From Actinomycetota bacterium (lineage in GTDB: Bacteria; Actinomycetota; Actinomycetes; Mycobacteriales; SCTD01), in NCBI GenBank assembly GCA_033851845.1, contig JAWWOH010000077.1, positions 1 to 37,616 of the forward strand: a stretch of DNA of 37,616 nucleotides. Reading direction: 5' to 3'. Position numbers and translations under genes: made by a program. Positions 2,378 to 20,816 of this stretch are shown here, piece by piece (the first letter of the stretch is position 1; each line of letters begins with the position of its first letter). The notes beneath the pieces were generated by a model. The model searched no databases and was not told where the DNA came from. It saw nothing but the letters and a program-made list of their open reading frames with translations.

Positions 2378-3252
2378 GCACCTTCCCAGGGGGGTTCGTC
2401 CCGGTGGCACCGCCGGCGGACGGGCTTCGGCTCGCGTTCGTCGCGGCCCGCCGTCGTCGCAATCGAAAGGCAGGCGCCACCGGCGCCGCCGGCCTGCTCG
2501 CCGCGGTGGCGCTGCTCGCCTCGACGGGGGGTGCGGGTCAGCCGACCCTGATGCAGGAGCCGCTGCCTCCGTCGTCGTCGACCGGTCTGGGCGTCCTGCC
2601 GGGAGCCGACCCGACGGCTGCGCCCGGCCGAACCGCCCCGCCGGCAGCCGCGTCGTCGCTCGCCGTTGTCTCCACGCGGCGCGCGCAGGTCGCAGATCCG
2701 CAGGCCCACGACACTGTGCGCTCGGACCTCACCTCGGCTGGCACGTCGTCCCGCAACGGCGTCAGCGCGCAAGGAACGAAGCCGGTGTCCGGCCCGATGA
2801 CCCGCGGGTCCAGCGTCCTCTACACAAATGGTGACCTGATGTGTCCCGCGCGCAAGCAGCAGGAGGGGCAGCGCGGTCTGTGCACGGACATCTACGCAAG
2901 CCAGAACCCCAGTACCGGGGACACGACCATCACGGCTGAGATCTGCAACGTCGGGACGGCCACCGAGGTCCTGAGCTACGAGACTGCTCGCGAGCTGGAC
3001 CTGAGCGTGCGGCGGTCGGGCATCGAGGTGTGGCGGTGGTCCATCGGACGGCACTTCGCCGCTACCCCGCACCAGCTCGCCATCGGAACCCAGGCGTGCA
3101 TCAACTGGTCGACGACCTGGGCGCAGGTCGACTCGCACGGTGGACGGGTCCAGGCCGGCGGCTACGACGTCGTTGCCGACTTCGACGCCGCCGAGGTGGC
3201 GGCAGCGGACCGGCACCCGTCGTACCCGATCACCATCTCGCAGCAACCGTAG
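2374..3252 (+). CDS. single-pass membrane protein co-translated with the ECF sigma; candidate non-canonical anti-sigma factor
   Basis: 292 aa. A short cytoplasmic N-terminus (~25 aa, Arg-rich) is followed by one predicted transmembrane helix (GLLAAVALLAS) and an extracytoplasmic Pro/Ser/Ala-rich linker. The C-terminal domain carries 4 Cys. It is translationally coupled to the sigma gene, the usual position for an anti-sigma. No HxxxCxxC zinc anti-sigma motif is present. Confidence 0.55.
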   Translation: MSTFPGGFVPVAPPADGLRLAFVAARRRRNRKAGATGAAGLLAAVALLASTGGAGQPTLMQEPLPPSSSTGLGVLPGADPTAAPGRTAPPAAASSLAVVSTRRAQVADPQAHDTVRSDLTSAGTSSRNGVSAQGTKPVSGPMTRGSSVLYTNGDLMCPARKQQEGQRGLCTDIYASQNPSTGDTTITAEICNVGTATEVLSYETARELDLSVRRSGIEVWRWSIGRHFAATPHQLAIGTQACINWSTTWAQVDSHGGRVQAGGYDVVADFDAAEVAAADRHPSYPITISQQP

Positions 3253-3264
3253 GATCGGGCTCTC

Positions 3265-3337
3265 GCCGGGTTAGCTCAGTTGGCAGAGCACCGCTCTTGT
3301 AAAGCGGATGTCGTCGGTTCGATCCCGACACCCGGCT
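3265..3337 (+). tRNA. tRNA-Thr (anticodon UGU)
   Basis: Cloverleaf folded by hand. Acceptor GCCGGGT/ACCCGGC; D-arm GCTC-AGTTGGCA-GAGC; anticodon stem CCGCT/AGCGG with loop CTTGTAA (anticodon TGT); T-arm GTCGG-TTCGATC-CCGAC; discriminator T. CCA is not encoded. The antisense ORF shows the typical tRNA-shadow peptide. Confidence 0.9.
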
Positions 3338-3355
3338 CTGCCTCAAATGTATTGG

Positions 3356-3448
3356 GTCGGCTGAAGCTTGACAGACAAGCTTCGGCTGACCCTTTACACG
3401 GTTTCGGCTGATGGTTGACACGGCCTTCGGTTGATTCTTGACACTCCC
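3356..3448 (+). repeat. four tandem imperfect ~22-bp repeats (TTCGGCTGA-N3-5-TTGACA-CGG) between the tRNA and the IS remnant
   Basis: Units at 3356-3380, 3381-3401, 3402-3425 and 3426-3448. Each contains TCGG(C/T)TGA and a TTGACA/TTTACA hexamer. An embedded palindrome gaagcttg-N5-caagcttc lies at 3362-3382. Confidence 0.5.
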
Positions 3449-3453
3449 TCAGC

Positions 3454-3979
3454 ATGAGGGAGTTGAGCGTGTCGGAGCAGCGGTATCAGGCGATCCTCGC
3501 GGTGATCAGCGATGGCCGGACGGTGAAGGAGGTCGCGGCCGAATGGTCGGTGAGTAGGCAGACGTTGCATACCTGGCTGGCGCGCTATGAGGCCGGCGGT
3601 CTGGAGGGGCTGGCGGACCGGTCGCATCGGCCGAGACTCGTGTCCGCATCAGATGCCGGCGCAGGTCGAGGCGACGGTGCTGGAGATGCGCCGCGCGCAT
3701 GGCTACTGGGGTCCGCATCGGTTGATGGTGGAACTAGCCCGCAAGGGCGTGACGCCGGCGGTGTCGGAGTCGGCGGTCTATCGCTGTCTGGTGCGGGCCG
3801 GGGTGATCGAGCCGGCCCGTCGGCTGCGTCGCGAGGACGCATGGCGGCGGTGGGAGCGGGGCCGGCCGCTGGAGCTGTGGCAGATGGATGTGGTCGGTGG
3901 GTTCCTGCTCGCCGACGGCACGTCGGTCAAGGCGCTGACCGGGGCGCGGCCTTGGCGACGGACTTGTCTGTGCTGGTGA
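3454..3979 (+). pseudogene. IS481-family transposase remnant (frameshifted near 3630-3642, truncated after the first DDE residue)
   Basis: Frame 1 (3454-) gives MRELSVSEQRYQAILAVISDGRTVKEVAAEWSVSRQTLHTWLARYEAGGLEGLADRSHRP, the IS481 N-terminal helix-turn-helix. Frame 2 (3587-3979) continues SCPHQMPAQVEATVLEMRRAHGYWGPHRLMVELARKGV...ELWQMDVVGG..LADGT, the start of the DDE/rve domain. It then stops at 3977-3979 with most of the catalytic domain missing. Confidence 0.75.
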
Positions 3980-4185
3980 CTGCGAGCGCGTCGAGCACAG
4001 CGCCGGTCTGCGGCAGCTTCACCCGCCACGCGCTTTCGAGAATCGACAGAAGCCCGATGTCTCCGGCTGCCGTGCCGGCCCAGACTGGAACGGCCTGCGG
4101 CCCGCGTAGTTCGAGAACGGCGCTGAGCAATCTGACCCATTCTGTGTCAGACGCGACGCGGACCGAAGGCTGGCAGGGTGTGGGT

Positions 4186-5052
4186 TCAGGTACCTGTTAG
4201 GGAGTGCCAGAGCGCCCGCGTTGGCCGCTGCTCGAGGTAGTTGGGAAGGGTGCAGGCGGCGATCCGGAACGACGGTAGCTTCACGTCTACGGCCACCACG
4301 TCGACGCCGGGGGGCCGCTGCTGTGCAACGAGGTCGGGGACGATGCCGACGCCGCAGCCCAGTGAAGCCAGGGCTAGTACCGCTTCATGTCCGTGCGCCT
4401 CCGCGGCGACTGTGGGCCGTACCCGCAACCGCCGGAACCACAGATCGACCAGAGTGCGGCTCAGGCCGGTCTCTGGCAGCACGAACGGGACGCTGGACCA
4501 GGCCGGCGACACCGAGGTCGGCAATGTCAGACCACTGGCGCTCGACACCACCAGCACCATGTCGGTGGAGGTGATCACGTGGGCCAGCAGGTCTCGGGGC
4601 GTGCGCGCTGGCAGTGCAGCGATGGTCACGTCGACACTACCGTCCCTCAGTCGTTCTAGGGCTTCCGCGGCGTACCCCGTCTCGATGGCCAGGTGCACCG
4701 ACGGGTGGGTCGCCCGGAACGTGGCCAACAAGGACGGCACGATCGTCTGGCTCGCCGTCACCGTGCAGAACAGCGTCAAGGTTCCGGAGACGATCTCCTC
4801 AGGCTCCGTGGGGCCGAAACGCTGCCACTCGGTCAGGACGCGATGCGTGGTGTCGAGGAACCGGACACCGTCCGGCGTGAGCCCGACCGTGCGCCGGTCC
4901 CGATCAAACAGACGCACGCCGGTCTCCGCCTCCAGACGCGAGATGGTGCGGCTCAGCGTCGAGGGCGTCACATGACATTCCGCTGCCGTACGCCCGAAGT
5001 GGAGCGTCGCCGCCAAGTGCTGGAAGAGCTCGAGCTGATCAAGAGAAGTCAT
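4186..5052 (-). CDS. LysR-family transcriptional regulator, IlvY-like by context (divergent from a class II ketol-acid reductoisomerase)
   Basis: 288 aa. N-terminal helix-turn-helix (LELFQHLAATLHFGRTAAECHVTPSTLSRTISRLEAETGVRLFDR) plus a LysR substrate-binding domain. It is transcribed divergently from the reductoisomerase gene with a 71-bp gap, the E. coli ilvY-ilvC arrangement. Confidence 0.85.
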   Translation of the reverse strand: MTSLDQLELFQHLAATLHFGRTAAECHVTPSTLSRTISRLEAETGVRLFDRDRRTVGLTPDGVRFLDTTHRVLTEWQRFGPTEPEEIVSGTLTLFCTVTASQTIVPSLLATFRATHPSVHLAIETGYAAEALERLRDGSVDVTIAALPARTPRDLLAHVITSTDMVLVVSSASGLTLPTSVSPAWSSVPFVLPETGLSRTLVDLWFRRLRVRPTVAAEAHGHEAVLALASLGCGVGIVPDLVAQQRPPGVDVVAVDVKLPSFRIAACTLPNYLEQRPTRALWHSLTGT

Positions 5053-5075
5053 GCACAGAGTGCATCACAGTGATC
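5052..5075. promoter_or_regulatory. two abutting palindromes (TGCACAGAGTGCA and ATCACAGTGAT) in the LysR/reductoisomerase divergent intergenic region; candidate LysR-type operator
   Basis: Read directly from the sequence at 5052-5064 and 5064-5074. They lie in a locally AT-richer 71-bp intergenic region. Confidence 0.35.
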
Positions 5076-5123
5076 CCCATGTTTCACTGGACGCATTACG
5101 ACATCTCGGGCTTTCCTTCAGCT

Positions 5124-6596
5124 ATGACTACTTTCTGTTCTCACATCTTCCCCGTGGAGCAGGTCGAGCTGGCCGGCACCGTCGAATCTGTCCTGGTCGG
5201 CGGGCGACACCTCCGATCCTTGATTCCTCAGGCTTTTCAAGGCGTCGATGAGATTGGCGTCATCGGCTGGGGATCGCAGGCGCGTGCACAGGCGGCCAAC
5301 CTGCGCGACTCTCTTGTCGGTACCAGTACCCGCGTCGTCGTCGGCCTTCAGCAGGGCTCACCTTCTGCCTCCGATGCGCGCGAGTGCGGCTTCACCGAGG
5401 AGGACGGGACCCTCGGCGAGATGTACGAGGTCATCGCGCGTTCGGACCTGGTACTGCTGCTCATCTCCGACGCCGCGCAGGCGACCGTGTACCCGCAGGT
5501 GTTCGCGGCCCTGCAACCCGGCGCGACGCTCGGCTTGTCCCACGGCTTCCTGCTCGGTTACCTCCACGCGATCGGGGTCGACGTGCCGAGCGATATCAAC
5601 GTGATCGGCGTCTGCCCGAAGGGGATGGGACCGTCGGTCCGGCGGCTCTACGAGCAGGGCGACGGCGGTGCCGGCATCAACTGCAGCTTCGCGGTCGCGC
5701 AGGACATTGACGGCTGGGCCACCGATCTCGCTCTCGCGTGGGCCGTCGGCATCGGAGCTCCCTGTACCTTCCGCACGACCCTCGAGCAGGAGTACCGCTC
5801 GGACGTGTTCGGCGAGCGAGGTGTGCTGCTCGGTGGGCTGCACGGCCTGGTCGAGAGCCTCTACCGGTTGCGCGCGGACACGGGTATCCCGGCCGAGTTG
5901 GCCTTCCGCAGCAGCTGCGAGACCCTCACCGGGCCGATCCGGCAGGCGATCTCCCGCGACGGTCTCAAGGGGCTGTACGGCAGCCTTTCCGTTGCGGAGC
6001 AGTCGGCCTTCGGGTCGGCGTACAACGCTTCGTACGGACCGCTGTACGGGCTGCTCGCCGAGATCTATGAGGAGGTCGACTCAGGTCGCGAGATCGCCTC
6101 TGTCGTCGCCGCTGGCGCGCGCCTGAACGACCACCCGATGCCGCAGGTCGAGGGCACGCCGATGTGGGAGGTCGCTGCGCGCGTCCGAGCTGCTCGCACC
6201 GACGACCCGGGACCCATCGACCCGGTCGCCGCCGGACTGTTCGCGGCGATGATGATGGCTCAGGCCGACCTGCTTCGCAGCAAGGGCCACGTCTGGTCCG
6301 AGATCGCGAACGAGTCGGTCATCGAGGCCGTAGACAGCTTGATCCCCTACATGCATGCTCGCGGCGTCGCCCACATGGTCGACAACTGCTCCGTCACCGC
6401 GAGGCTCGGGGCCCGTCGTTGGGGCCCGGTGTTCGAAGCCACTTTGAGCCGCGCCGTGCTTCCGCGGATCGGTGGCCATTCTGCCGGCGCACCAGAAGGG
6501 TTCATCGGCCATCCGCTGCACGACGTTCTCAGCACTCTCGGCCGATTCCGACCTTCGATTGACATCGCGTTGATCCCCGAAGCAGCGCCGGCCTGA
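5124..6596 (+). CDS. ilvC: ketol-acid reductoisomerase, class II (long form, ~490 aa, E. coli IlvC-type)
   Basis: Alignable by eye to E. coli IlvC throughout: N-terminal FCSHIFPVEQVELAG versus FNTLNLRQQLAQLG; Rossmann motif VIGWGSQARAQAANLRDS versus VGCGAQGLNQGLNMRDSG; LGLSHGF versus LGYSHGF. Its duplicated C-terminal knotted domain gives ~490 aa, against ~340 for class I. The ORF opens at GTG 5070. I chose ATG 5124 by N-terminal alignment to E. coli IlvC. Confidence 0.8.
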   Translation: MTTFCSHIFPVEQVELAGTVESVLVGGRHLRSLIPQAFQGVDEIGVIGWGSQARAQAANLRDSLVGTSTRVVVGLQQGSPSASDARECGFTEEDGTLGEMYEVIARSDLVLLLISDAAQATVYPQVFAALQPGATLGLSHGFLLGYLHAIGVDVPSDINVIGVCPKGMGPSVRRLYEQGDGGAGINCSFAVAQDIDGWATDLALAWAVGIGAPCTFRTTLEQEYRSDVFGERGVLLGGLHGLVESLYRLRADTGIPAELAFRSSCETLTGPIRQAISRDGLKGLYGSLSVAEQSAFGSAYNASYGPLYGLLAEIYEEVDSGREIASVVAAGARLNDHPMPQVEGTPMWEVAARVRAARTDDPGPIDPVAAGLFAAMMMAQADLLRSKGHVWSEIANESVIEAVDSLIPYMHARGVAHMVDNCSVTARLGARRWGPVFEATLSRAVLPRIGGHSAGAPEGFIGHPLHDVLSTLGRFRPSIDIALIPEAAPA

Positions 6597-6619
6597 CCGG
6601 CGAGGAAGACTAGATCCGT

Positions 6620-7831
6620 ATGACGGTCTCGGCGGCGGTGGAGCGTGCGGTCGCTGCCGTCACGGACCGCGAAAGCGACGTCCAAGCCTGGGCACGCCTC
6701 GACATCGAGCGGGCAGGGCAAGAGGCGATCGAGGCGGATCGGGCCTCGTCTCGTGGAGCACTGAGTGGCCTGGTCCTGGCTGTCAAAGACAACATCGACA
6801 GGGCGGGCCTCGCGACGGGTTGCGGGTCGCAGATCCCCACCGCGCAGGCCGCGAAGACCGATGCCTGGGTCGTTGATCGGCTGCGAAGCGCAGGTGCCGT
6901 GTGCCTAGGCAAGACCGTGTCCACCGAGTTCGCGTTGTTCTTCCCAGGACCGACTCGCAACCCTTGGCGGCTGACCCACACACCTGGAGGATCCTCGAGC
7001 GGGTCCGCCGCGGCAATCGCCGCGGGTATGGCCGACATCGCACTCGGCACCCAGACGGGCGGCTCGGTCATCCGGCCCGCAAGCTTCTGCGGCGTGTGGG
7101 GTTTCAAACCGACCTTCGGTGCCGTCCCGCGCGAGGGCATCCGCGTCATCGCGCCCTCTCTGGACACCGTAGGGTGGTTCGGACGCTCAGCAGCAGACCT
7201 CGAAGCCGTCCGTCGCGTCCTGGGCGACCAGACACCGCCAGCGCCGATCGACACGCCACCGCGGTTCGCGCTCCTCCGCACCGAGTACTGGACCGAGGCG
7301 GACCGGAGCGCTCGAACAGCCGTGACAACGGCAGCTGACCGAGCACGGACCGCCGGAGCACGCGTCACCGAACGCGACCCGGCAGTGCTGGCCGGCCTGG
7401 CACAAGGCCAACCGCTCATCCAGTGCTACGAGGCCGCTCGCTCCCTCCGATTCGAGCGGGAACACCACGCCAACAGGCTGTCAGCTTCGCTCAAGAACTA
7501 CCTCGCCCAGGGGGATGCCGTCAGCTGTGAGCAGCACGAAGCGGTGCTGGCGTCGGCCGCCCGTGTCCGCACAGCGCAGGACGAGGTCTTCGACGACGGC
7601 GACGTCCTACTGACCTTGGCGGCCGCAGGGGAGGCACCAAAAGGGCTGACGTCGACCGGCGATCCGCTCCACTCCCAGCTCTGGACCTTGCTCGGCTGGC
7701 CGACAGTCGCCGTACCCGGACTGAAGGGATCCACCGGATTGCCCATCGCCGTGCAGCTGATCGGCCGCGCCGGGTTCGACGCAGAGGTCATCGCCGCCGC
7801 GGCGTGGCTCGCGGAGGCGATGCGAGCATGA
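6620..7831 (+). CDS. amidase signature (AS) family amidase
   Basis: 403 aa with the GGSSSGSAAAIAAGMADIALGTQTGGSVIRPASFCG signature (Ser-cisSer-Lys family), KDNIDRAGLATGCGS. Confidence 0.85.
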   Translation: MTVSAAVERAVAAVTDRESDVQAWARLDIERAGQEAIEADRASSRGALSGLVLAVKDNIDRAGLATGCGSQIPTAQAAKTDAWVVDRLRSAGAVCLGKTVSTEFALFFPGPTRNPWRLTHTPGGSSSGSAAAIAAGMADIALGTQTGGSVIRPASFCGVWGFKPTFGAVPREGIRVIAPSLDTVGWFGRSAADLEAVRRVLGDQTPPAPIDTPPRFALLRTEYWTEADRSARTAVTTAADRARTAGARVTERDPAVLAGLAQGQPLIQCYEAARSLRFEREHHANRLSASLKNYLAQGDAVSCEQHEAVLASAARVRTAQDEVFDDGDVLLTLAAAGEAPKGLTSTGDPLHSQLWTLLGWPTVAVPGLKGSTGLPIAVQLIGRAGFDAEVIAAAAWLAEAMRA

Positions 7832-9165
7832 GCGTCGTTCCCGAGACGCTACGCGAAGGCACCCGATGGCCTGAACCTCGCCTACCAGGTCATCGGAGGA
7901 GGTCCCGTCGACCTCGTCTTCATCTCGGAATGGACGACGCACATCGAGGCGCAGTGGGACTACCCGCCGCTGGCACGCTTCCTGGACCGGCTCGCCAGCT
8001 TCAGCCGGCTGATCATGTTCGACAAGCGCGGCATGGGCCTTTCCGACCCCTTACCCCTTGACCACGTCCCGACGCTGGAACGCGGCGTCGAGGACATCTC
8101 CGTTGTGCTGGACGAGATCGAGTCCTCCCAGGCCTCCCTGTTCGCGACCGCCGAGCGGGTCCGATGAGCATGGTCTTCGCCGCGACACACCCGAGCAGGG
8201 TGCGCGCCCTCGTACTCGCCGATACCTTCGCACGGCTCGCTGCCGCACCGGACTACCCGCAAGGCGTCTCCGTCGAGCAGCAGCGCGCCTACCTGGCCAC
8301 CGTCGAGCGCGACTGGGGAACAGGGGGCGTAGTGGAGCACTTCGCGCCCAGCCGCCAGGACGACACCGCCTTTCGGACCTGGCTCGGACGCTACCGACGG
8401 ATGTCGGCCAGCCCCGGCATGGGCCGTCGGATGCAGGAGCGCTTCTACGACACTGACGTCCGCGAGGTCCTCCCCATCATTGCGGTCCCAACCCTGGTGC
8501 TGCACCACGTCGGGAACGCGTTCGTCCCAGCCAGCGCCGGGCGCTACGTGGCAGAAGCTATCCCCGGCTCCCAGTTCGTCGAGCTCGACGGAGACGAGCA
8601 CCTGTTCTACGCGGGACCGACCGACCAGATGCTTGACGAAGTGGAGCAGTTCCTCATCGGAAGCCGGCAGCCGCACCGCACCAACCGAGTCCTCGCCACG
8701 GTGCTGTTCACCGACATCGTCGACTCAACGGGAACAGCAGGACGCGTTGGCGACGGTGCCTGGCGCGACCTCCTCGACAGCCACGACACCCACGCCCGTC
8801 GTCAGCTCGCGCGCTTCCGAGGCCGAGAGATCAGCAGCACAGGTGATGGTTTCCTCGCGACCTTCGACGCCCCGGCTCCCGCAATCCAAGCCGCCGCTGC
8901 CATTCGCGAAGGAGCCCGTCGACTCGGCCTCGACACCCGCGCCGGGGTACACGCCGGAGAGGTCGAACTACGCGCCACCGGCATCGGCGGCGTTGCCGTG
9001 CACCTCGCCCACCGCATCCTCAGCGCAGCATCCCCCGGCGAAGTCCTCGTGTCCTCAACCATCCGGGATCTCGTGACCGGGTCCTCGCTGCGCTTCCTCA
9101 ACCGCGGCCACCAGACTCTCAAGGGCTTTGACGAGCCGTGGCACCTGTACGCCGTAGACCTGTAA
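7828..9165 (+). pseudogene. LipJ-like alpha/beta-hydrolase-fold/class III adenylyl (nucleotidyl) cyclase fusion, disrupted by two compensating frameshifts
   Basis: ATG 7828 (frame 1) gives MSVVPET.... The alpha/beta-hydrolase segment RYAKAPDGLNLAYQVIGGGPVDLVFISEW...FDKRGMGLSDP is in frame 2 (about 7844-8167, stop 8165-8167). Frame 1 resumes at 8164 with MSMVFAATHPSRVRALVLAD... and the cyclase domain (VLFTDIVDSTG...GDGFLATFD...HAGEVE...GGVAVHLAHRI). This is the architecture of mycobacterial Rv1900c/LipJ. Frame 2 has no start codon, and frame 1 hits a stop at 8059-8061. Confidence 0.55.
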
Positions 9166-9217
9166 GAGCCCGCTCCGTTCGCTCTACCCTGCGCCACCCG
9201 GGTTCCTTCCCAAGTCA

Positions 9218-9249
9218 CAGCTGCTCGCCGCGCCGCCGGCGAGTAGCTG
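9218..9249. terminator. hairpin (13-bp stem with 1 mismatch, 6-nt loop) downstream of the cyclase pseudogene
   Basis: cagctgctcgccg at 9218-9230 pairs with cggcgagtagctg at 9237-9249, read from the sequence. Confidence 0.25.
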
Positions 9250-9543
9250 CGGTCGATGGATCACTTACAGGGCAACCTGTTGGTGCCGGCCGCTAGCGGA
9301 GTCAGGCAGGGCGGGAGAACGCCGCCATCCAACATCCCTGCCGTTAGCTCCGTGCCGTGCCCACCGGCGAACCGTTGTTTGCACGGCCCGCACATGGCTT
9401 CTGAAGCAACCTGGATTGGCGGCCACGTTGGCATCCAAAATGACGGACCGCTGCGGTCTTTCGTGACCTCCTGTGGACCATGTTGTGTTCAGGCGCACGC
9501 TCAGTGAACACCGACGGTCACCGGCGGACGTCTGCCCAGCCAA

Positions 9544-9588
9544 CTTATAGAGCGGATGTAGTCGGTTCGATCCCGACACCCGGTTCTG
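9544..9588 (+). repeat. partial direct copy of the tRNA-Thr 3' half (anticodon loop to discriminator); putative attR-type islet junction
   Basis: cttatagagcggatgtagtcggttcgatcccgacacccggttctg versus tRNA 3296-3340 cttgtaaagcggatgtcgtcggttcgatcccgacacccggctctg: 41/45 identical, same orientation. The copy has no 5' half of the tRNA. Confidence 0.7.
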
Positions 9589-9633
9589 TCTTGTGGTTGG
9601 GTCGCTGACCCGCGCCTCGACGGCGGACATCGG

Positions 9634-10932
9634 TCAGGCTTTGTCGCCGCGAAGATCCAGCACGTGTTGGGCTTTGCCTTCGGAGCGCGGGAGCGTGCCG
9701 GGTGCGCCGACCTCGCACGTCACGGTGACGCCGACGTTGTCCTTGATCAGCGCAACGAGCTGGTTGCTCAGTAACGCAAGCCCTTCTGCGCTGACGTCTG
9801 CTCGTGCCTCTGCTCGCACTGTCATCTCATCGAGCCGGCCGGGCCTGGTCAGCACGACTTGGTAGTGCGGGGCCAGTCCTTCGACGCGCAGCAGCTGCTC
9901 CTCGATCTGCGTCGGGAACACGTTGACACCGCGAAGGATCAGCATGTCGTCGGAGCGGCCGCTGATGCGCTCGATCCGCCGCATGGTCCGTGCGGTGCCC
10001 GGAAGCAGGCGGGTCAGATCCCGGGTGCGATAGCGGACGAGAGGCATCGCCTCCTTGGACAGGGTGGTGAAGACGAGCTCGCCGTACTCGCCCTCCGGCA
10101 GCACCTCACCGGTCGCCGGATCGATGATCTCGGGGTAGAAATGGTCCTCCCAGACGTGCAGGCCGTCCTTGGTCTCGACGCACTCGTTCGCGACCCCTGG
10201 GCCCATCACCTCGGACAGTCCGTAGATGTCGACGGCGTCGAGGCCGGCCCGGTCCTGCACCTCCGAGCGCATGTCCTCGGTCCACGGTTCGGCGCCGAAG
10301 ATGCCGATCCGCAGAGAAGACTTTCGCGGGTCGAGCCCCTGTCGCTCGAACTCGTCGAGCAACGCGAGCATGTACGACGGCGTGACCATGATGATGTCGG
10401 GCCGCAGGTCGGTGATGAGCCGGACCTGCCGCTCCGTCTGCCCGCCCGAGACCGGAAGCACGGTGCAGCCGAGCCGTTCGGCGCCGTAGTGCGCTCCGAG
10501 GCCGCCGGTGAAAAGGCCGTAGCCGTAGGCGATGTGCACCGTCATGCCCGGTCGGCCGCCGGCGGCGTAGATGCTGCGGGCAACGACGTCCGACCACGTG
10601 TCGAGGTCGCGAGCCGTGTATCCCACGACGGTCGGTTGTCCAGTGGTGCCGCTGCTGGCGTGGACCCGGCGGATGTCCGTCTGAGGCACCGCGAACAGGC
10701 CATAGGGGTAGTTGTCGCGCAGGTCTGCCTTGGTGGTGAACGGGAACTGGCTCAGCTCCGACAGGCTGGTCAGGTCGTCCGGCTTGATGCCCGCCTTGTC
10801 GAAGGCCTGGCGGTAGTGCGGAACGTTGTCGTATGCGTGCGCGAGCGACCAGCGCATCCGCTGCAGCTGAAGCGACTGCAGCTCGTCCGGCGCAGCGACC
10901 TCGACCGGGTCGTAGACATCGCTTGATGGCAC
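9634..10932 (-). CDS. phenylacetate-CoA ligase (PaaK) family adenylate-forming enzyme
   Basis: 432 aa with a GTG start. P-loop SSGTTGQPTVVGYT; overall PaaK/F390-synthetase-family collinearity (YGLSE, RYRTRD). Confidence 0.8.
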   Translation of the reverse strand: MPSSDVYDPVEVAAPDELQSLQLQRMRWSLAHAYDNVPHYRQAFDKAGIKPDDLTSLSELSQFPFTTKADLRDNYPYGLFAVPQTDIRRVHASSGTTGQPTVVGYTARDLDTWSDVVARSIYAAGGRPGMTVHIAYGYGLFTGGLGAHYGAERLGCTVLPVSGGQTERQVRLITDLRPDIIMVTPSYMLALLDEFERQGLDPRKSSLRIGIFGAEPWTEDMRSEVQDRAGLDAVDIYGLSEVMGPGVANECVETKDGLHVWEDHFYPEIIDPATGEVLPEGEYGELVFTTLSKEAMPLVRYRTRDLTRLLPGTARTMRRIERISGRSDDMLILRGVNVFPTQIEEQLLRVEGLAPHYQVVLTRPGRLDEMTVRAEARADVSAEGLALLSNQLVALIKDNVGVTVTCEVGAPGTLPRSEGKAQHVLDLRGDKA

Positions 10933-10963
10933 TGCCAGCTCTCCTCTGCTTTCGTGGTCGCGG

Positions 10964-11647
10964 CTAGACGCCTGAGGCCCGCCGGGGGAGCGCGAACTCC
11001 TCGACGAGGATCCGATGCGTGCTGGTCAGGTGCTCACGCATTCCGCGAGCCGCCTCCTGCTCGTTGCCGGCTGCGATCGCCCCTGCGATCTGCTCATGGG
11101 CGGCGATCTCGTCGGCGGAGCTGATGTGGCTCTCCAGACTCGGCAGTAGGAAGTGCAGCCGCGTCACCTCGTCCACGAGGTTGGCGATGACCTTCGTGGC
11201 GCGAGCATTGCCGGACATCTCCGCGATGCGCACGTGGAAGTCCGCAGCGCCTTGCAGTGCCGCGGCCAAGTCGTTCTTCGCGCGACGCTGCCGTCGTACG
11301 GTCTCGTTCATCCGTGCGTCACTGGCGGCTACCCGGGCGGCTGCCTCGGCGGCGAACCCCGGCTCGAGCATCTCTCGTAGCTGGAACACGTCGCGTAGGT
11401 CGTCAAGGCCGAGCGGCCGGACGAGGTAGCCGCGACGCGGGAGCACGAGCACCCACCCGTCTTGCACCAGTAGCCGCAGAGCCTCCCGTACCGGCGTCTT
11501 GGATACGCCGAACCGGGCCGCGAGCTCGGGCTCGAGGATCGTCGCACCCGGGAGCAGGCGGGCGGTCAGGATCTCTTCGCGCAGCCGGGCATGGACGCGC
11601 TCAGTGAGCGGCAGCCCGGGCGGACCTGTGTTGACCGCGCTACCCAC
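10964..11647 (-). CDS. GntR-family transcriptional regulator (FadR/FCD subfamily)
   Basis: 227 aa. N-terminal winged helix-turn-helix (EPELAARFGVSKTPVREALRLLVQDGWVLVLPRRGYLV) plus a C-terminal all-helical FCD domain. It is divergent from the downstream catabolic operon. Confidence 0.85.
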   Translation of the reverse strand: MGSAVNTGPPGLPLTERVHARLREEILTARLLPGATILEPELAARFGVSKTPVREALRLLVQDGWVLVLPRRGYLVRPLGLDDLRDVFQLREMLEPGFAAEAAARVAASDARMNETVRRQRRAKNDLAAALQGAADFHVRIAEMSGNARATKVIANLVDEVTRLHFLLPSLESHISSADEIAAHEQIAGAIAAGNEQEAARGMREHLTSTHRILVEEFALPRRASGV

Positions 11648-11650
11648 TGG

Positions 11651-11671
11651 TGATATCTCTCAGATATCTCA
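11651..11671. promoter_or_regulatory. AT-rich intergenic stretch with duplicated GATATCTC (two GATATC palindromes 5 bp apart); candidate GntR operator or divergent promoter
   Basis: tGATATCTCtcaGATATCTCa at 11651-11671 sits in a 39-bp gap between the GntR gene and the first operon gene. Local GC is far below the window average. Confidence 0.3.
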
Positions 11672-11686
11672 CGAACGAGAGAGTAG

Positions 11687-12493
11687 ATGGTCCTCGAACT
11701 CAGCGCCAGCATCCCTGCGCTTTACGGCAGTCGTCCGTTCGCGGCGGCCTGCGCAGCGGCCGCCGCCGACGGATTCGCTTGCGTCGAGCTCTGGGCGCCG
11801 CCAGAACGTCCGGACTGGCCCGCGGCGCTGACGGCACTGGACGCACGCGGCCTGTCGCTGACCTCGGTTAATGCTCCGGCAGGCGCACCCCCTGCCTTCG
11901 GCACCGCCGCCGCGCCGACGCTCGCTGAGAGCTGGCGAGCGGAGGTCATGGACGCGCTCGAGTTCGCGCGGCTGGCCGGCGCCACCGCGATCAACGTCCT
12001 CGCTGGCGCTCGGATGCCGGGACACACGCGGGCCGACCAGCTGGCGTGCCTGCGGGAGAACCTCAAGTGGCTGTTGGACCTCCTGGACGACAGCGATCCG
12101 GTGCTGCTCCTCGAGCCGCTCAACACTGTTGACCGGTGCTCCCCGTTACTGGGTCGAATCGATGACGCGATCGCGGTGCTCGACCAGCTCGGATCGGATC
12201 GGCTGCGGCTGCTCTTCGACGCCTATCACGTGCACCAGGAGGAGCCGGACCTGCTGCCGGCCTTCGACCGCGCGTTGCCCTACATCGGTCATGTGCAGGT
12301 CGCTGACTTCCCCGGGCGGGCACAGCCCGGCACCGGCACGCTGGCGTGGCCTTCCCTGATTGCCGAGATCGTGAAGTCGGGCTACCAGGGCCGCATCGGC
12401 TGTGAGTTCGTGCCCACCTGCCCGGACGCAGTCGCCCTGGCTCGCGCGTATCTGACTGCGTTGCAGGTCATCGAAGCAGGGGGTGCGACATGA
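11687..12493 (+). CDS. xylose-isomerase-like TIM-barrel protein (hydroxypyruvate isomerase / sugar-phosphate isomerase-epimerase family)
   Basis: 268 aa. The pattern is typical of the Hyi/AP-endonuclease-2 TIM barrel (ACVELW, LLEPLN, FDAYHV, GHVQVAD, GCEF). Its stop overlaps the next start (ATGA at 12490-12493). Confidence 0.75.
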   Translation: MVLELSASIPALYGSRPFAAACAAAAADGFACVELWAPPERPDWPAALTALDARGLSLTSVNAPAGAPPAFGTAAAPTLAESWRAEVMDALEFARLAGATAINVLAGARMPGHTRADQLACLRENLKWLLDLLDDSDPVLLLEPLNTVDRCSPLLGRIDDAIAVLDQLGSDRLRLLFDAYHVHQEEPDLLPAFDRALPYIGHVQVADFPGRAQPGTGTLAWPSLIAEIVKSGYQGRIGCEFVPTCPDAVALARAYLTALQVIEAGGAT

Positions 12494-14208
12494 CCGCCGA
12501 GCTGCCGAGCAGCGCGGCGCTCGACGGTGATGCCGGTTTCGCGGCCCGGACCTTCCTGCGCTCCGGCGGCCTCACGGCGGAGCAGGTTCGTCGCCGGCCG
12601 ATCATCGGCATCTGCTCGAGCTGGAGCGAGCTGACACCGTGCAACCTGCCGTTGAAGGCGATTGCCGAGCACGTTCGGTACGGCGTCGAACAGGCCGGTG
12701 GCACCGCCCTGGTGTTCCCGACCATCTCGCTGTCTGAAGCGTTGGTACGGCCTACGACGATGTTCTTGCGGAACCTGATGTCCATCGACGTCGAGGAGAT
12801 GATCACCGCCAGCCCGATCGACGGCGTCGTCCTGCTGAACGGCTGTGACAAGACCGTCGCGGCGCAGCTGATGGGCGCGATCAGCGCCGACAAGCCGGCG
12901 GTCTCGCTCGGTGCGGGCATCCGTCCGCGCGGAGAGTGGTGCGGGCGGGCACTCACGATCGACGACTCCTGGCGGCTCATGGAGGAGCGTCGTGCAGGCC
13001 TGCTTGACGACGAGGCGTGGGCAGACGTCGAGGGTCGGGTGAGTCCGGGACCGGGTGTGTGCAACGTGCTCGGCACCGCGGTCACCCTCGCGATGATCGC
13101 CGAAGTGCTCGCCTTCGCGATGCCCGGATCGAGCCTGCAGGATGCCGGTTCCGACGAGCAGGCCGAGCTCGCGCGCCAGACCGGGGCCGCCGTCGTACGT
13201 GCGGTCAGTGAGGGCGTCCGGCCGAGCAGCCTGGTGACGCGGGACGCGCTCCTCGACGCATGGCGCGTCGTCTGCGCACTCGGTGGGTCGACCAACGCAG
13301 CCATCCATCTGCTTGCGCTGGCCGGGCGGGCCGGTGTGGTCCTGACGCTCGACGACCTCGCCGCCGCCGGCCGCGCGACACCGACCCTCGGCCGGATCAA
13401 GCCCAACGGCCCCTTTGACCTCGACGACCTTCGCGCTGAGGGCGGCGTCGCGGCAACGTTGGCCGCGCTCTCGCCCCAGGTGGCTCTGGGCCGGGCCACG
13501 GCGGACGGACGGGCCTGGCGCGAGGTCGTGGCTGCGCTGCCAACCTGCCCGTCTCGAGCGCTCGCGTCGTCAGCGGCTCCGCAAGCGCCGTCGGCCGCGA
13601 TCGCCGTGCTGCACGGAAGCCTGGCCCCGGCTGGTGCCGTCATCAAGCGCAGCGCCGCCTCGCCGGGACTGCTGCGTCACACCGGGCCGGCCGTCGTGTT
13701 CGACGGCGTCGATGACATGCATGACCGCATCGATGATGACAACCTCGGTCTGGACGAGTCCTGCGTGCTGGTGTTGCGCAACTGCGGCCCGGTCGGTGGC
13801 CCGGGCATGCCGGAGGCCGGCGCCATCCCGATCCCGGTCCGGTTGTGGGCTCAGGGTGTGCGCGACATGGTGCGGATCTCGGACGCCCGGATGAGCGGAA
13901 CGGCTGCCGGCACGATCGTCCTGCACATCGCCCCGGAAGCAGCAGTCGGCGGGCCGTTGTCGCTCGTGCATGACGGCGACCTGATCTCGCTCGACGTCGA
14001 TGCCGGGCGACTCGACCTGCTCGTCACCGACGAGGAGCTGCAGCGTCGTACCGAGCGACGAGCCAGGGGCGTTGGCGACGTTCCCGAGGAACGCGGCTAC
14101 AGGTGGCTGTACCAGCGACATGTGATGCAGGCACCCGAGGGCTGCGACTTCGACTTCCTCCGCAGCACCGGACGTCAAGAGGCCCACAGCAGGGGAGGCG
14201 CGGCATGA
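12490..14208 (+). CDS. IlvD/EDD-family dehydratase (dihydroxy-acid / sugar-acid dehydratase)
   Basis: 572 aa. N-terminal IIGICSSWSELTPCN and CDKTVAAQLMG (the [Fe-S] Cys region), and the conserved C-terminal domain of the IlvD/EDD family. Confidence 0.85.
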   Translation: MTAELPSSAALDGDAGFAARTFLRSGGLTAEQVRRRPIIGICSSWSELTPCNLPLKAIAEHVRYGVEQAGGTALVFPTISLSEALVRPTTMFLRNLMSIDVEEMITASPIDGVVLLNGCDKTVAAQLMGAISADKPAVSLGAGIRPRGEWCGRALTIDDSWRLMEERRAGLLDDEAWADVEGRVSPGPGVCNVLGTAVTLAMIAEVLAFAMPGSSLQDAGSDEQAELARQTGAAVVRAVSEGVRPSSLVTRDALLDAWRVVCALGGSTNAAIHLLALAGRAGVVLTLDDLAAAGRATPTLGRIKPNGPFDLDDLRAEGGVAATLAALSPQVALGRATADGRAWREVVAALPTCPSRALASSAAPQAPSAAIAVLHGSLAPAGAVIKRSAASPGLLRHTGPAVVFDGVDDMHDRIDDDNLGLDESCVLVLRNCGPVGGPGMPEAGAIPIPVRLWAQGVRDMVRISDARMSGTAAGTIVLHIAPEAAVGGPLSLVHDGDLISLDVDAGRLDLLVTDEELQRRTERRARGVGDVPEERGYRWLYQRHVMQAPEGCDFDFLRSTGRQEAHSRGGAA

Positions 14209-15098
14209 GACTCGTCAGCTTCGGGTTACCCGGCGCGGAGCAGCCGGGGGTCCTCCTCGAGGACGAGGTCGTGCCGCTGGTCGGCTGGCTCGCCGACCTC
14301 GGACTGGACGGCGTGGGGATGAACGGCGTTCTCGGTCTGCTGCCGACGATGCGCTCAGAGGCCGAGAAGTACGTCGCTGCCGCGCGCACTCGGGTGCGCC
14401 TGGAAACCGTTCGGCTCGGACCGCCGGTCCCCAAGCCGCCGTCGCTGATCGTCATCGGTGGCAACTTCCACAGTCATGTCCAGGAGATGGCGGGCATGAA
14501 CGGCGGCAAGCCACCGCTGCAGCCGATCATCGTGCCCAAGCCGACGACCAACGTTGTCGGACCGCGCGACGACATCGTCAAGCCCGCGGTCACCGAAGAG
14601 CTCGACTACGAAGCCGAGATGGCTGTCGTCATCGGCAAAGCCGGGCACGGCATCCGACGAGAGACCGCCATGGAACACGTCGCCGGCTACATGAACATCC
14701 AGGACATGACGGCCCGCGATCTCATCCTGCCGGCCGGCGAGCCGTGGATGCACCTGCAGATGGGCCGCGCGAAAGGCTTCGACGGCTCCAGTCCCTGCGG
14801 GCCTTGGTTGCTGACCTCCGACGAGGTAGAGGACCCGCACGATCTCGAGATCCGGATGTGGGTGAACGACGAGCTGCGCCAGCACGGTTCGACGTCGGAC
14901 ATGGTCGTCGACATTCCCGGTCTGGTCGAGAGCGTGAGCGCAGTCTTCCGGATCCGTCCCGGCGATGTCCTGATCACCGGAACCCCAGCGGGCGTAGGCG
15001 CGAAGATGGAACCACCGCGGTTCCTGCAGCCTGGCGACCGCATCCGGATGGCGATCACGGGCCTCGGCGAGACCGCCAACACGATCATGGCCTCCTGA
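14205..15098 (+). CDS. fumarylacetoacetate hydrolase (FAH) family protein (2-keto-3-deoxy-acid hydratase/dehydratase-like)
   Basis: C-terminal FAH-fold motifs (DYEAEMAVVIGK, NIQDMTARD, GDVLITGTPAGVG). I chose start ATG 14205, which overlaps the IlvD-family stop (ATGA). An in-frame ORF extends upstream to 14103. Confidence 0.75.
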   Translation: MRLVSFGLPGAEQPGVLLEDEVVPLVGWLADLGLDGVGMNGVLGLLPTMRSEAEKYVAAARTRVRLETVRLGPPVPKPPSLIVIGGNFHSHVQEMAGMNGGKPPLQPIIVPKPTTNVVGPRDDIVKPAVTEELDYEAEMAVVIGKAGHGIRRETAMEHVAGYMNIQDMTARDLILPAGEPWMHLQMGRAKGFDGSSPCGPWLLTSDEVEDPHDLEIRMWVNDELRQHGSTSDMVVDIPGLVESVSAVFRIRPGDVLITGTPAGVGAKMEPPRFLQPGDRIRMAITGLGETANTIMAS

Positions 15099-15970
15099 TG
15101 GACGCAGCACGCATCGGGTTCATCGGACTCGGAGCCATGGGCGCGCGCATGGCCGCCCGGCTGCTCGACGTCGGGTTCGATCTGACCGTCCACAACCGCA
15201 CGAGAGCGCGCGAGACCGATCTCATCGGGCGGGGCGCGACGTCGGCGTCCTCGCCTGCGGAGCTCGCGACCAGGACGGACGTCGTTGTTGGTTGCCTGCT
15301 CGACGACGGCGCCATCGAGCAGGTCTACCGCGGTGACGACGGACTGGTCAGCGCAGCCCGCCGCGGCCAGGTCTTCATCGAGCACGCCACCTTCTCGCCG
15401 GCACTTGCCGGCGACATCGAGCGGGAGCTGGCCAAGCGCGACGCGGTGTTCCTCGACGCACCGGTCAGTGGTGGGCCGGAGGGCGCGGCGGCCGGCACGC
15501 TGGCAGTGATGGTCGGCGGCAACCAGCAGAGCCTTGCCGCGGTCGTGGAGGTCGTGCAGGCATATGCGTCGCGCGTCGTGCACATCGGACCGACCGGCGC
15601 GGGTCTCGAGCTCAAGCTCGTCAACCAGCTCCTCGTCAGCTGCCACGCCGCTGCCGCCGCAGAGGCGGCCGAGCTCATGCGCCGGATGGGCATGCCACTG
15701 GGCGTCGCCAGCGCAGTGCTCAACGCGAGCTGGGCGAACAGCGCGATGCTCAGCCGGATGTTCGACCGACGTCTGGCCGAAGAGAACACGCCATCAGAAG
15801 CGACTGTCGAGGGGCTCGCGACGCCGCAACGCCTGGTGCGCGAACTGCTCGCGGAGCACGACCTCGCGCCAGCTGTCTCGAACGCCGCCCTGGACGCGTT
15901 CGCGACCGCTCGCGCACGGGGGCGCGGCCGCCAGGATCTGACCGAGCTGCTGGAGGCGGCACAATGCTGA
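15098..15970 (+). CDS. NAD(P)-dependent 3-hydroxyisobutyrate dehydrogenase / 2-hydroxy-3-oxopropionate (tartronate semialdehyde) reductase family oxidoreductase
   Basis: 290 aa. N-terminal Rossmann IGFIGLGAMGARMAARL and the 6PGDH-type NAD-binding fold (GTLAVMVGG, LELKLVNQLL). Its start overlaps the FAH stop (TGATG). Confidence 0.8.
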   Translation: MDAARIGFIGLGAMGARMAARLLDVGFDLTVHNRTRARETDLIGRGATSASSPAELATRTDVVVGCLLDDGAIEQVYRGDDGLVSAARRGQVFIEHATFSPALAGDIERELAKRDAVFLDAPVSGGPEGAAAGTLAVMVGGNQQSLAAVVEVVQAYASRVVHIGPTGAGLELKLVNQLLVSCHAAAAAEAAELMRRMGMPLGVASAVLNASWANSAMLSRMFDRRLAEENTPSEATVEGLATPQRLVRELLAEHDLAPAVSNAALDAFATARARGRGRQDLTELLEAAQC

Positions 15971-17502
15971 GGACCCGTACGCCGATCGGCGCTGTCCTTC
16001 TCACCCTCGTCCTCACGGGATGTGGCAGCACGGTCCAGCCTGGGACGCAGACCGTCTCCGGCGGCCAGCCCGGGGGCACCTCGGGCTCGGGTTCCACCGG
16101 CGGGCTGGGGGCACCGACCTCGGGTTCGCAGGGACTCCCCGGCACGGGCGGAACTGGCGGCACTGCCACGGGGCCCGGTGCTGGCGGCACGACGACCGGT
16201 GCCGGCACGACCGGCGGCAGTACGACGGGCGGTGCGGCGAGCGGAACCGCGGGTGCCAACACGACCGGAACGTCGGGGCCGTCCTCGACGCAGCCGAAGA
16301 CCGGACCTTTGCAGCTCGGGGTGCTCGACGCGAAGTCGCCGGCAGCGGCAGCGAGCGCCACCGGGGCGAAGAGCCCGGCCGGCGTTGACCCCGCCGAGCT
16401 CACCCGCGCGTTCATCCACTACTACAACGCGCACGGCGGCCTGGCCGGCCGCAAGCTCGAGCCCATCGAGTACACGATTGACCCGACGTCGGCGTCGTAC
16501 GAGAACGACCTGTCGGCGGCTTGCGCGAAGTTCACCCAGGACAACCACGTGCGGCTCGTCGTGAGCCAGACCGGCAACATCTTCTCCGGCAACTACGAGG
16601 GTTGCCTTACCAAAGCGGGCGCCACCAACCTCGAGGTCGGCAACGGCGCTCCGGACGAGCGCTCGCTCAAGAGCTATCCGCGTCTCTATACGACCGGGTC
16701 GCCGACGGTCGACCGTCGGGTGACGGCGCAGCTGCGCGGTCTGGCGAAGACCGGCTTGCTCACCCGCACAACGAAGATCGGGGTCATCGTCGAGGCCTGC
16801 CCGGACAACACGCGCGCCTATGACAAGACCGTTGTGCCGGTTGCGCGATCGCTAGGGCTCACGCTTGAGCGCCGGGACGTGGACTGCGTCGCCGGGTTCA
16901 ACGATGCGGGAAACTTCTTCGCGCAGGTCGGATCAGCGGTATTGCCGTACAAGACCGCGGGGGTCTCGCGGGTCCTGTTCATGACGTCGTTCGAGGTGGC
17001 GGCCGTGCAGGCCTTCGAGAACCAGGCCCAGGCTCAGGCCTACACGCCGTCGTACGTCCTGAGCAGCATCGCGGCCACGCCGGTGCAAGCCAGCCAGTAC
17101 AGCGCGGATGCGCAGAAGCGCATGTTCGGTGTCGGCTGGATCCCCGTTCAGGACACCACCGGCATCCCACAGGGCCAAGCGGTCAAGCGCTGCTTCGAGA
17201 TCGCGAGCGCCGAGGGCCAGTCGATCGCTTCTCAGGGCGACTACGTCTTCCTCCTGCAGATCTGCGACCTGTTCGGCATCCTCGATGCGGCCCTGGTCAA
17301 CGCGAGCGGCAGCGATGACACAGCGGCATTCGCTGCGGGTCTCGGCGCCGCGTCGAAGTCGTTCCAGAGCACCGACATTCTCGGTGGTCGGCTGCGCCTC
17401 GGGGGCGACACCCACGACGCACCACCGGTGTTCGCGCCGTTCGGCTACGTGGGCTCGTGCTCGTGCTTCCGATACCTCGGCAAACCCGCGGCGCTGGCGT
17501 GA
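15964..17502 (+). CDS. lipoprotein: signal peptide + lipobox (LTGC), ~100-aa Gly/Thr/Ser-rich linker, type-I periplasmic-binding-protein-like domain (orphan substrate-binding protein)
   Basis: MLRTRTPIGAVLLTLVLTGC. A low-complexity GGT/SGT linker spans 16030-16330. The C-terminal ~400 aa resemble Leu/Ile/Val-binding-protein-type ABC substrate-binding proteins. The ATG overlaps the previous stop. No permease or ATPase genes are adjacent. Confidence 0.65.
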   Translation: MLRTRTPIGAVLLTLVLTGCGSTVQPGTQTVSGGQPGGTSGSGSTGGLGAPTSGSQGLPGTGGTGGTATGPGAGGTTTGAGTTGGSTTGGAASGTAGANTTGTSGPSSTQPKTGPLQLGVLDAKSPAAAASATGAKSPAGVDPAELTRAFIHYYNAHGGLAGRKLEPIEYTIDPTSASYENDLSAACAKFTQDNHVRLVVSQTGNIFSGNYEGCLTKAGATNLEVGNGAPDERSLKSYPRLYTTGSPTVDRRVTAQLRGLAKTGLLTRTTKIGVIVEACPDNTRAYDKTVVPVARSLGLTLERRDVDCVAGFNDAGNFFAQVGSAVLPYKTAGVSRVLFMTSFEVAAVQAFENQAQAQAYTPSYVLSSIAATPVQASQYSADAQKRMFGVGWIPVQDTTGIPQGQAVKRCFEIASAEGQSIASQGDYVFLLQICDLFGILDAALVNASGSDDTAAFAAGLGAASKSFQSTDILGGRLRLGGDTHDAPPVFAPFGYVGSCSCFRYLGKPAALA

Positions 17503-17513
17503 AGGAGCCCAGG

Positions 17514-20742: not shown

Positions 20743-20816
20743 CAATCTGCCTACGCGGTTCCTACGCCGAAGCACGAGACGGCCAGCATCGACAGCCCTG
20801 AACAAGACCTGAGCAC

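Follow-up and report, generated by a model that had tools for sequence, protein, structure and literature searches.

A predicted substrate-inducible, plant-type ketol-acid reductoisomerase beside an IlvY-type regulator in an actinobacterial tRNA islet

The stretch of DNA analysed here (the window, 37,616 nucleotides from an actinobacterium) carries a LysR-family gene and a ketol-acid reductoisomerase (KARI) gene as a divergent pair, at 4186-5052 on the minus strand and 5124-6596 on the plus strand. This ilvY-ilvC pair likely encodes a substrate-induced KARI for isoleucine, valine and pantothenate synthesis, a prediction favoured because the active site is identical to that of plant KARIs, the regulator is orthologous to IlvY and an IlvY-type box is conserved. 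KARIs of class II include a plant-type and an enterobacterial lineage. A sequence-only reading had described the locus as an Escherichia coli-style ilvY-ilvC pair, in which a long-form class II reductoisomerase lies divergent from a LysR regulator inside a tRNA-bounded islet, next to an amidase, in a high-GC actinobacterium. The layout, the islet, the amidase and the host are as described, and the E. coli-style label fits the regulator. It does not fit the enzyme, which is of the plant type.

The regulator contains the Pfam domains HTH_1 and LysR_substrate and scores 260.6 bits against the NCBIfam IlvY equivalog (NF008722, cut-off 246), the next family reaching 99.9 bits. Along its full length it shares 37% identity with E. 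coli K-12 IlvY (E = 3e-56), and its recognition helix, HVTPSTLSRTISRLE, is almost identical to that of the E. coli protein, HVSPSTLSRQIQRLE. Judged by model score and full-length identity, the regulator is an IlvY orthologue. Its best match in the PDB is NtcB (65.6 bits); a solved IlvY structure for comparing the pockets is not available. The effectors of E. coli IlvY are alpha-acetolactate and alpha-acetohydroxybutyrate and its target is PilvC (PMC11495319; bioRxiv 10.1101/2020.07.28.220327), the IlvY-ilvC regulatory pair of that organism having been described earlier (Wek and Hatfield, 1988, as cited in PMC11495319).

The enzyme finds its best PDB matches in the spinach (1QMG/1YVE, 545 bits) and rice (3FR7, 536 bits) KARIs. 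Both alignments run end to end, residues 4-486 pairing with residues 17-513 of the spinach chain, and identity to the two plant enzymes is ∼53-54% over the full length. The next best score belongs to a fungal KARI (167 bits), class I enzymes reach at most 119 bits, and the E. coli enzyme (1YRL) scores 64.8 bits. The NCBIfam model for enterobacterial class II KARIs (PRK05225) is matched at 68.3 bits over the N-domain only, against a cut-off of 713, and BLASTP aligns the protein with E. coli IlvC at 30% identity over 240 amino acids of the N-terminal domain, leaving the C-terminal domains unaligned. An E. coli-type identity is ruled out by the NCBIfam, PDB and BLASTP scores, and on these comparisons the enzyme belongs to the plant-type class II lineage. 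The expected long form with a duplicated C-terminal domain is present, since Pfam detects KARI_N and two KARI_C stretches within 490 amino acids. In a neighbour-joining tree (62 sequences, 484 columns, 100 bootstraps, E. coli outgroup), the window KARI falls inside the plant-type family. It lies in a clade of 12 sequences (97% bootstrap) that are 62-80% identical to it and that come from soil and other metagenomes and one ‘Acidimicrobiales bacterium’ metagenome-assembled genome (MAG).

All catalytic residues of the spinach enzyme (H226, K252, D315, E319, E492, E496 and S518 in spinach numbering) are identical in the window KARI, as are the substrate-pocket residues L323, L324, L501 and C517. 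Together, these 11 residues are invariant in 60-61 of the 61 aligned family members, the window protein included, and every Mg2+ ligand of plant KARI is retained. The open reading frame (ORF) ends at 6596 on the plus strand and could start at 5070, 5079 or 5124; the public annotation chooses ATG 5079, giving a protein of 505 amino acids. Homologues of 483-497 amino acids start at positions equivalent to ATG 5124, and a conserved non-coding block (5082-5095) lies upstream of this codon. For these reasons ATG 5124 is favoured, and the annotated start is probably too far upstream.

Taking ATG 5124 as the KARI start, the ilvY-ilvC spacer comprises 71 bp (5053-5123). The two palindromes reported from the sequence alone can be read there, at 5051-5065 (ATGCAcagagTGCAT, with a TGCA-N5-TGCA core that overlaps the ilvY start codon) and at 5064-5074 (ATCAC-a-GTGAT). 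Across the seven spacers available from the clade of the window KARI, TGCA at 5061-5064 (the right half of palindrome 1) and CACAG at 5066-5070 are invariant, as is T..CA.TGGAC..A within the block TTTCACTGGACGCA (5082-5095). A TTCACT element starts 17 nt after the first box in the window, as it does in the Francisellaceae loci L012 and L013. The degenerate motif TGCR-N5-YGCA occurs in 61 of 67 IlvY-KARI spacers, compared with 1.1% of control segments of the same length taken from the same loci, and is present in at least seven separate lineages. It is found as TTGCAaaaatTGCAA in the E. coli ilvY-ilvC spacer (L127 2345-2359), as TTGCAttttaTGCAA or similar in Francisellaceae and as GTTGCGcttgcCGCAAC in Streptomyces. 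Within the window alone the degenerate box is uninformative (11 matches against 5 expected), so the case for an operator is built on position and on conservation across lineages. On that basis, the IlvY-type operator suspected earlier gains support as a putative element. By analogy with E. coli IlvY and with LysR-type regulators at large, the first box may be the high-affinity IlvY recognition site and, because it overlaps the ilvY start codon, may also serve in autorepression; the block at 5082-5095 is a candidate activation site at the ilvC promoter. An Rfam scan of 3000-10000 returned a tRNA only, with no leader or riboswitch.

The pair resides in an islet of 6.25 kb (3342-9591) that begins behind a tRNA gene. 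ARAGORN over the window and Rfam over 3000-10000 each find a single tRNA gene, tRNA-Thr(TGT). The objection that one tRNA cannot bound an islet is overturned by a 48-nt partial tRNA copy at the far end (9544-9591), 90% identical to the 3' half of the gene at 3265-3338. A 26-nt probe taken from the repeat has two sites in the window, one in each copy, against none expected, and the distal copy also matches the tRNA 3' half of two relatives (L135 and L136) at 90-91%. These relatives share the host backbone at 78-87% DNA identity (∼83-84% for L135, ∼78-87% for L136) and have the same tRNA-Thr after the BsuPI-domain gene, as in the window. Synteny with both ends at window position 3341, 3 nt past the tRNA-Thr, and resumes at 21581; the intervening cargo consists of NERD and glyoxalase genes in one relative and of a VWA/MoxR cluster in the other. 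Because the relatives carry different cargo after the same tRNA, the tRNA-Thr is regarded as an integration hotspot, where the ilvY-ilvC islet forms the tRNA-proximal module of an 18-kb variable region (3342-21580). No third tRNA-derived repeat was found with the probe near ∼21580, the end of this larger region. Islet genes have a mean GC content at third codon positions (GC3) of 0.819, compared with 0.89 in the backbone (Mann-Whitney p = 0.001), and the overall GC content differs modestly (0.671 against 0.70-0.71). Horizontal acquisition of the islet, surmised earlier, is well supported at the sequence level by the different cargo of the relatives at the same tRNA-Thr and by the lower GC3. 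Both relatives are without the pair at this site, so the locus does not present a core enzyme at a syntenic, non-island position.

The host itself is actinobacterial. Its ThrC shares 92% identity with the ThrC of ‘Mycobacteriales bacterium’ MAGs, and the public NCBI record assigns the KARI protein to an ‘Actinomycetota bacterium’ MAG. Two contigs from the Joint Genome Institute (JGI) that encode an identical KARI show the upstream backbone, which consists of ispF, an EAL-domain gene, cysS and a SpoU methylase gene, followed by sigma-factor, Band_7 and BsuPI-domain genes. In sequence, the host backbone is Mycobacteriales-like.

Homology searches reveal that plant-type KARIs form a large bacterial family. 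In the neighbour-joining tree the sister group of the window clade is a Streptomyces/Pseudonocardia clade (64% bootstrap), and plant chloroplast KARIs nest among the bacterial plant-type enzymes. In this tree the sequences nearest to the plant KARIs are a marine metagenome sequence and those of Verrucomicrobia, Lentisphaerae and Spirochaeta (L100, L011, L024 and P0077). No cyanobacterial KARI was recovered among the sampled hits. A metagenome scan for closer relatives gave nothing above 58% identity. A divergent LysR/IlvY-like gene adjoins KARI in all seven clade loci with context available, and the same divergent pair is found in ∼50 Streptomyces species, Pseudonocardia eucalypti, Francisella, Cysteiniphilum, Caedibacter and several metagenomic contigs. 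IlvY with a plant-type KARI is a recurrent two-gene module across phyla. Of nine LysR proteins tested that accompany plant-type KARIs in other lineages, eight score above the IlvY cut-off, and for the ninth IlvY is the best match. Pairwise identities of IlvY and KARI are correlated over 17 loci (r = 0.83, a value reached by none of 2000 Mantel permutations), which fits inheritance or transfer of both genes as a unit. Two deeply divergent lineages of class II KARI appear to have kept IlvY and its TGCA-N5-TGCA box as partners, suggesting that one enzyme displaced the other beside a conserved regulator.

The module varies in its setting. Plant-type KARIs without an IlvY neighbour occur in Desulfobulbaceae, Verrucomicrobia, Thermomicrobia, Lentisphaerae and some Actinobacteria MAGs. 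In one such actinobacterial locus (L009), the gene lies ∼6 kb from ilvB-ilvN in a serA neighbourhood, a context that points to a probable housekeeping role. In Streptomyces, plant-type KARI genes are found toward the ends of complete chromosomes and on three large linear plasmids (312 kb to 1 Mb). One plasmid locus (L137, NZ_CP109191.1 133036-134517) has KARI near IS5 and other transposase genes, with no IlvY neighbour. Among the Streptomyces loci L035-L090 (e.g. L038 8403-9393), the region 1-3.5 kb downstream of the pair contains a DUF4865 gene in 41 loci and a cupin gene in 20, and the IlvY-KARI locus is partly syntenic within a Streptomyces subgroup. Inspection of the Streptomyces loci for a biosynthetic gene cluster context found flanks that vary by species and no biosynthetic core genes. 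In four of the seven loci from the clade of the window KARI, the gene immediately after KARI encodes a small Cupin_2 protein; these genes are orthologous to one another, and the window has none. Two other clade loci have a tRNA gene near ilvY, a tRNA-Ser ∼160 nt away (L128 4178-4267) and a tRNA-Lys ∼1.5 kb away (L001 5470-5541). Further tRNA-associated insertions of the module in this clade are hinted at.

Taken as a substrate-induced KARI, the system would operate much like its E. coli counterpart. A degenerate islet would have integrated at the 3' end of the tRNA-Thr gene, with the self-contained ilvY-ilvC module as its functional cargo. By analogy with E. coli IlvY, the regulator would bind the TGCA-N5-TGCA box over its own start codon and so repress itself, while a second dimer would contact the conserved block at 5082-5095 beside the ilvC promoter. 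Accumulating KARI substrates would then lead IlvY to activate ilvC. The enzyme is predicted to catalyze a Mg2+-dependent alkyl migration and an NAD(P)H-dependent reduction, yielding the 2,3-dihydroxy acids of isoleucine, valine, leucine and pantothenate synthesis. Mycobacteriales characteristically carry a class I ilvC, exemplified by the Mycobacterium tuberculosis KARI (PDB 4YPO). Given this, and since the relatives lack the islet at the corresponding site, the module would most likely provide the host with a second KARI, inducible by substrate, beside a class I ilvC.

Several observations weigh against this interpretation. Arg162 of spinach KARI binds the 2'-phosphate of NADPH, and the corresponding residue of the window KARI is Gln (motif GLQQGSPS), at a position where 59 of 61 family members have Arg. 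The residue equivalent to the neighbouring spinach Lys163 is also Gln, and S165 and S167, which belong with R162 to the 2'-phosphate-binding set, are retained. The substitution could mean altered cofactor use or lower activity, and the cofactor preference may be relaxed or switched. In the spacer, the left half of palindrome 1 varies among the seven orthologous sequences of the clade alignment, three of which are without an exact TGCR-N5-YGCA match, and most motif-positive spacers are from Streptomyces and hence non-independent. A scan of the spacer and islet for sigma-70-type promoters gave no match, which is not unusual in actinobacteria. Two of the six islet genes, those for the IS481 transposase and a LipJ-like protein, are broken, and decay of the islet is under way. 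Pfam and NCBIfam detect no tyrosine or serine integrase or recombinase in the islet, only the IS481 remnant; the mechanism of integration is consequently read from the repeat alone, and the islet is viewed as degenerate and no longer autonomous.

Alternative roles can be weighed on the same evidence. The acquired enzyme might be the sole reductoisomerase of its host, a xenologous replacement of class I ilvC with a housekeeping function. A housekeeping role is consistent with the position of the L009 gene near ilvB-ilvN and serA, the IlvY-KARI pair of Francisellaceae shows no island signs, and the window gene is intact with its full catalytic set. This alternative is nonetheless unlikely, as the islet around the gene is small and decaying, and two relatives lack it at the corresponding site and must then obtain KARI activity elsewhere. 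The established presence of class I ilvC in Mycobacteriales also speaks against it, as does the lack of ilvB, ilvN or a true ilvD nearby in the window. The rare R162Q exchange in the cofactor loop, together with the accessory status of the pair on Streptomyces chromosome arms and plasmids, would agree with a KARI-like enzyme in a specialised pathway with the amidase (or, in relatives, the cupin), or with a resistance or bypass copy against an inhibitor of KARI or acetohydroxy-acid synthase (AHAS), in place of bulk isoleucine and valine synthesis. Orthologous amidase genes (53% identity) accompany the pair in the window and in L004, differently arranged in each, and the Cupin_2 gene directly follows KARI in four of seven clade loci. 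Such a role is improbable when L323, L324, L501, C517, S518 and all metal ligands are identical to plant KARI, and when an IlvY orthologue with an IlvY-type box would imply sensing of acetohydroxy acids. Apart from the cupin and amidase, neighbours are unconserved and biosynthetic core genes are not adjacent. The specialised small-molecule pathway that the sequence-only reading had offered as its other option finds no support, the 11 catalytic and pocket residues being invariant and the flanking genes differing between lineages.

That the islet is simply inert, with ilvY and ilvC unexpressed or useless and on their way to becoming pseudogenes, is highly improbable. The two broken genes, the loss of a nearly invariant cofactor residue through R162Q and the lack of a detected canonical promoter would all be expected of such a remnant, but ilvY, ilvC and the amidase gene are full length without frameshifts, the catalytic residues and operator blocks are conserved, and an identical KARI protein has been recovered from three independent samples. 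More speculatively, and doubtfully, the IlvY-controlled plant-type KARI could be a mobile ‘metabolic add-on’ with a benefit other than bulk isoleucine and valine synthesis. It might act as an NADH-accepting KARI by virtue of R162Q, as a bypass, insensitive to inhibitors, of the class I enzyme already present, or as a partner of the amidase or cupin on another 2-hydroxy-3-keto acid or amide.

The predicted substrate-induced KARI system of the window can be compared with several known ones. With E. coli ilvY-ilvC it shares divergent genes, an orthologous regulator (37% identity) and a near-identical recognition helix, along with a T-N11-A box that has a TGCA-N5-TGCA core in the spacer and is matched by sequence only. 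It differs in that its enzyme is of the plant-type lineage of class II, its spacer measures 71 bp instead of 149 bp with a box that overlaps the ilvY start codon, and the pair rides a tRNA-integrated islet in an actinobacterium. With plant chloroplast KARI (1YVE/1QMG and 3FR7) the window enzyme has in common an N-domain followed by a duplicated knotted C-domain, the Mg2+ ligands, H226, K252, S518 and the pocket. Unlike the plant enzyme it is bacterial, has no transit peptide, is predicted to be IlvY-controlled, has Gln in place of R162 and K163, and belongs to an actinobacterial subclade. The module of Streptomyces, Pseudonocardia and Francisellaceae agrees with that of the window in its two genes, their divergent arrangement and the operator motif, at 54-59% identity for KARI and 29-48% for IlvY; in Streptomyces, however, it occupies a partly syntenic locus, with DUF4865 and cupin genes downstream in many species, and not a tRNA islet. 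The class I KARI of Mycobacteriales (4YPO, in an ilvBNC operon) catalyzes the same reaction and has a homologous N-domain (108 bits), but is ∼335 amino acids long, has a single knotted domain that dimerises and lacks an IlvY partner. A class II KARI, MtKARI-II, has been reported from an M. tuberculosis assembly and attributed to horizontal gene transfer (PMC8985424). It is 100% identical to the enterobacterial-type enzyme of Morganella (PMC8985424) and is not of the plant type found in the window.

Public records already annotate such genes as ‘ketol-acid reductoisomerase’, RefSeq carries annotations for the module of Streptomyces, Pseudonocardia and Francisellaceae, and the IlvY model of the Prokaryotic Genome Annotation Pipeline (PGAP) would name the regulator. 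Full-text literature searches turned up no treatment of IlvY in Streptomyces or of its pairing with plant-type KARIs, and nothing relevant on plant-like bacterial class II KARIs or on the evolution of the KARI domain duplication. The comparative insight is modest and concerns a mobile cassette of IlvY and a plant-type KARI that shares its operator core with E. coli. It corrects a misreading, in that a long-form KARI beside IlvY in an actinobacterium represents the plant-type lineage and not an enterobacterial import. The plant-type lineage is widespread in bacteria and, as far as sequence comparison can tell, is tied to an IlvY orthologue through an E. coli-like operator core in several phyla. 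The cassette also offers a clean example of a regulator and enzyme that move as a unit, seen in a tRNA islet and, in Streptomyces, on plasmids and chromosome arms. These proteins are easily cloned bacterial relatives of plant KARI, a herbicide target, and the natural Arg162Gln variant may interest those engineering NADH-dependent KARIs. By analogy with E. coli, the pair is further predicted to supply a ready-made acetolactate-responsive LysR-type transcriptional regulator and promoter from high-GC bacteria. Understanding of the pathway itself is unchanged.

Table 1. Features of the islet and its surroundings in the window, with Cupin_2 genes of related loci given by locus handle
Feature	Position	Strand	Basis
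tRNA-Thr (anticodon TGT), integration site and left islet boundary	3265-3338	+	ARAGORN; Rfam tRNA 68.9 bits
Direct repeat copy 1, tRNA-Thr 3' half and 5 nt	3296-3343	+	Repeat search, 48 nt, 90% identical to copy 2
IS481-family transposase remnant, frameshifted, 3'-truncated	3454-3979	+	NCBIfam model
ilvY, LysR-type activator, IlvY orthologue by sequence, 288 amino acids	4186-5052	-	NCBIfam equivalog and full-length identity to E. coli IlvY
Palindrome 1, ATGCAC-aga-GTGCAT, T-N11-A box, putative IlvY recognition site	5051-5065	.	Direct reading and stem-loop scan
Conserved block TGCAtCACAGTGAT, contains palindrome 2	5061-5074	.	Seven orthologous spacers
Conserved block TTTCACTGGACGCA, putative activation site or ilvC promoter element	5082-5095	.	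Seven orthologous spacers
ilvC, plant-type class II ketol-acid reductoisomerase, 490 amino acids	5124-6596	+	PDB matches, Pfam domains, conserved active site
Amidase-signature enzyme, malonamidase-E2-like	6620-7831	+	Pfam Amidase 235 bits; PDB malonamidase E2 238 bits, full length
LipJ-like lipase/adenylate-cyclase gene, frameshifted at 8164-8167	7832-9165	+	LipJ model, two ORFs
Direct repeat copy 2, partial tRNA-Thr, right islet boundary	9544-9591	+	Repeat search
Second variable module: PaaK, GntR, sugar-acid-type dehydratase cluster, S15 peptidase, FAD monooxygenase, ApbE	9592-21580	.	Pfam, NCBIfam
Cupin_2 genes after KARI	L001 9464-9925; L128 6897-7388; L129 4746-5219; L130 5371-5736		

The remaining genes of the islet are listed with the pair in Table 1. 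The amidase gene starts 23 nt after KARI and is probably co-transcribed with ilvC. Its orthologue in the Acidimicrobiales MAG locus L004 (5800-7026, 53% identity) lies downstream of ilvY, so that the amidase is linked to ilvY-ilvC in two arrangements, after ilvC in the window and after ilvY in L004. In the IS481 remnant, frame 1 covers model positions 1-53 (the HTH part) and frame 2 (3554-3979) covers positions 54-144 of 284; the catalytic half is missing and the remainder of the frame-1 ORF is low-complexity, out-of-frame sequence. The two ORFs of the LipJ-like gene match model positions 11-110 and 117-449, with a junction that reads ATGA. This split is probably a real pseudogene mutation and not a sequencing error, because two independent JGI contigs show it as well. 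No family matches the small ORFs at 3927-4196 and 9256-9630.

Beyond the distal repeat, the second variable module (9592-21580) lies outside the ilvY-ilvC islet and is likewise absent from L135 and L136, with a GC3 of 0.85 compared with 0.89 in the backbone. Within it, an ILVD_EDD-family dehydratase gene (12490-14208), 6 kb from KARI, scores 655 bits with the PRK06131 subfamily. Its product falls below the models for true IlvD (348 against 618) and for L-arabinonate dehydratase (583 against 882). As a partner IlvD for the reductoisomerase this dehydratase was rejected, on account of those IlvD scores and of its place in a sugar-acid-type cluster of a separate module. The surrounding genes (10964-15970) encode a GntR regulator, a TIM-barrel protein, an FAA hydrolase and a HIBADH-like reductase, and together with the dehydratase gene they probably form a sugar-acid catabolic cluster.

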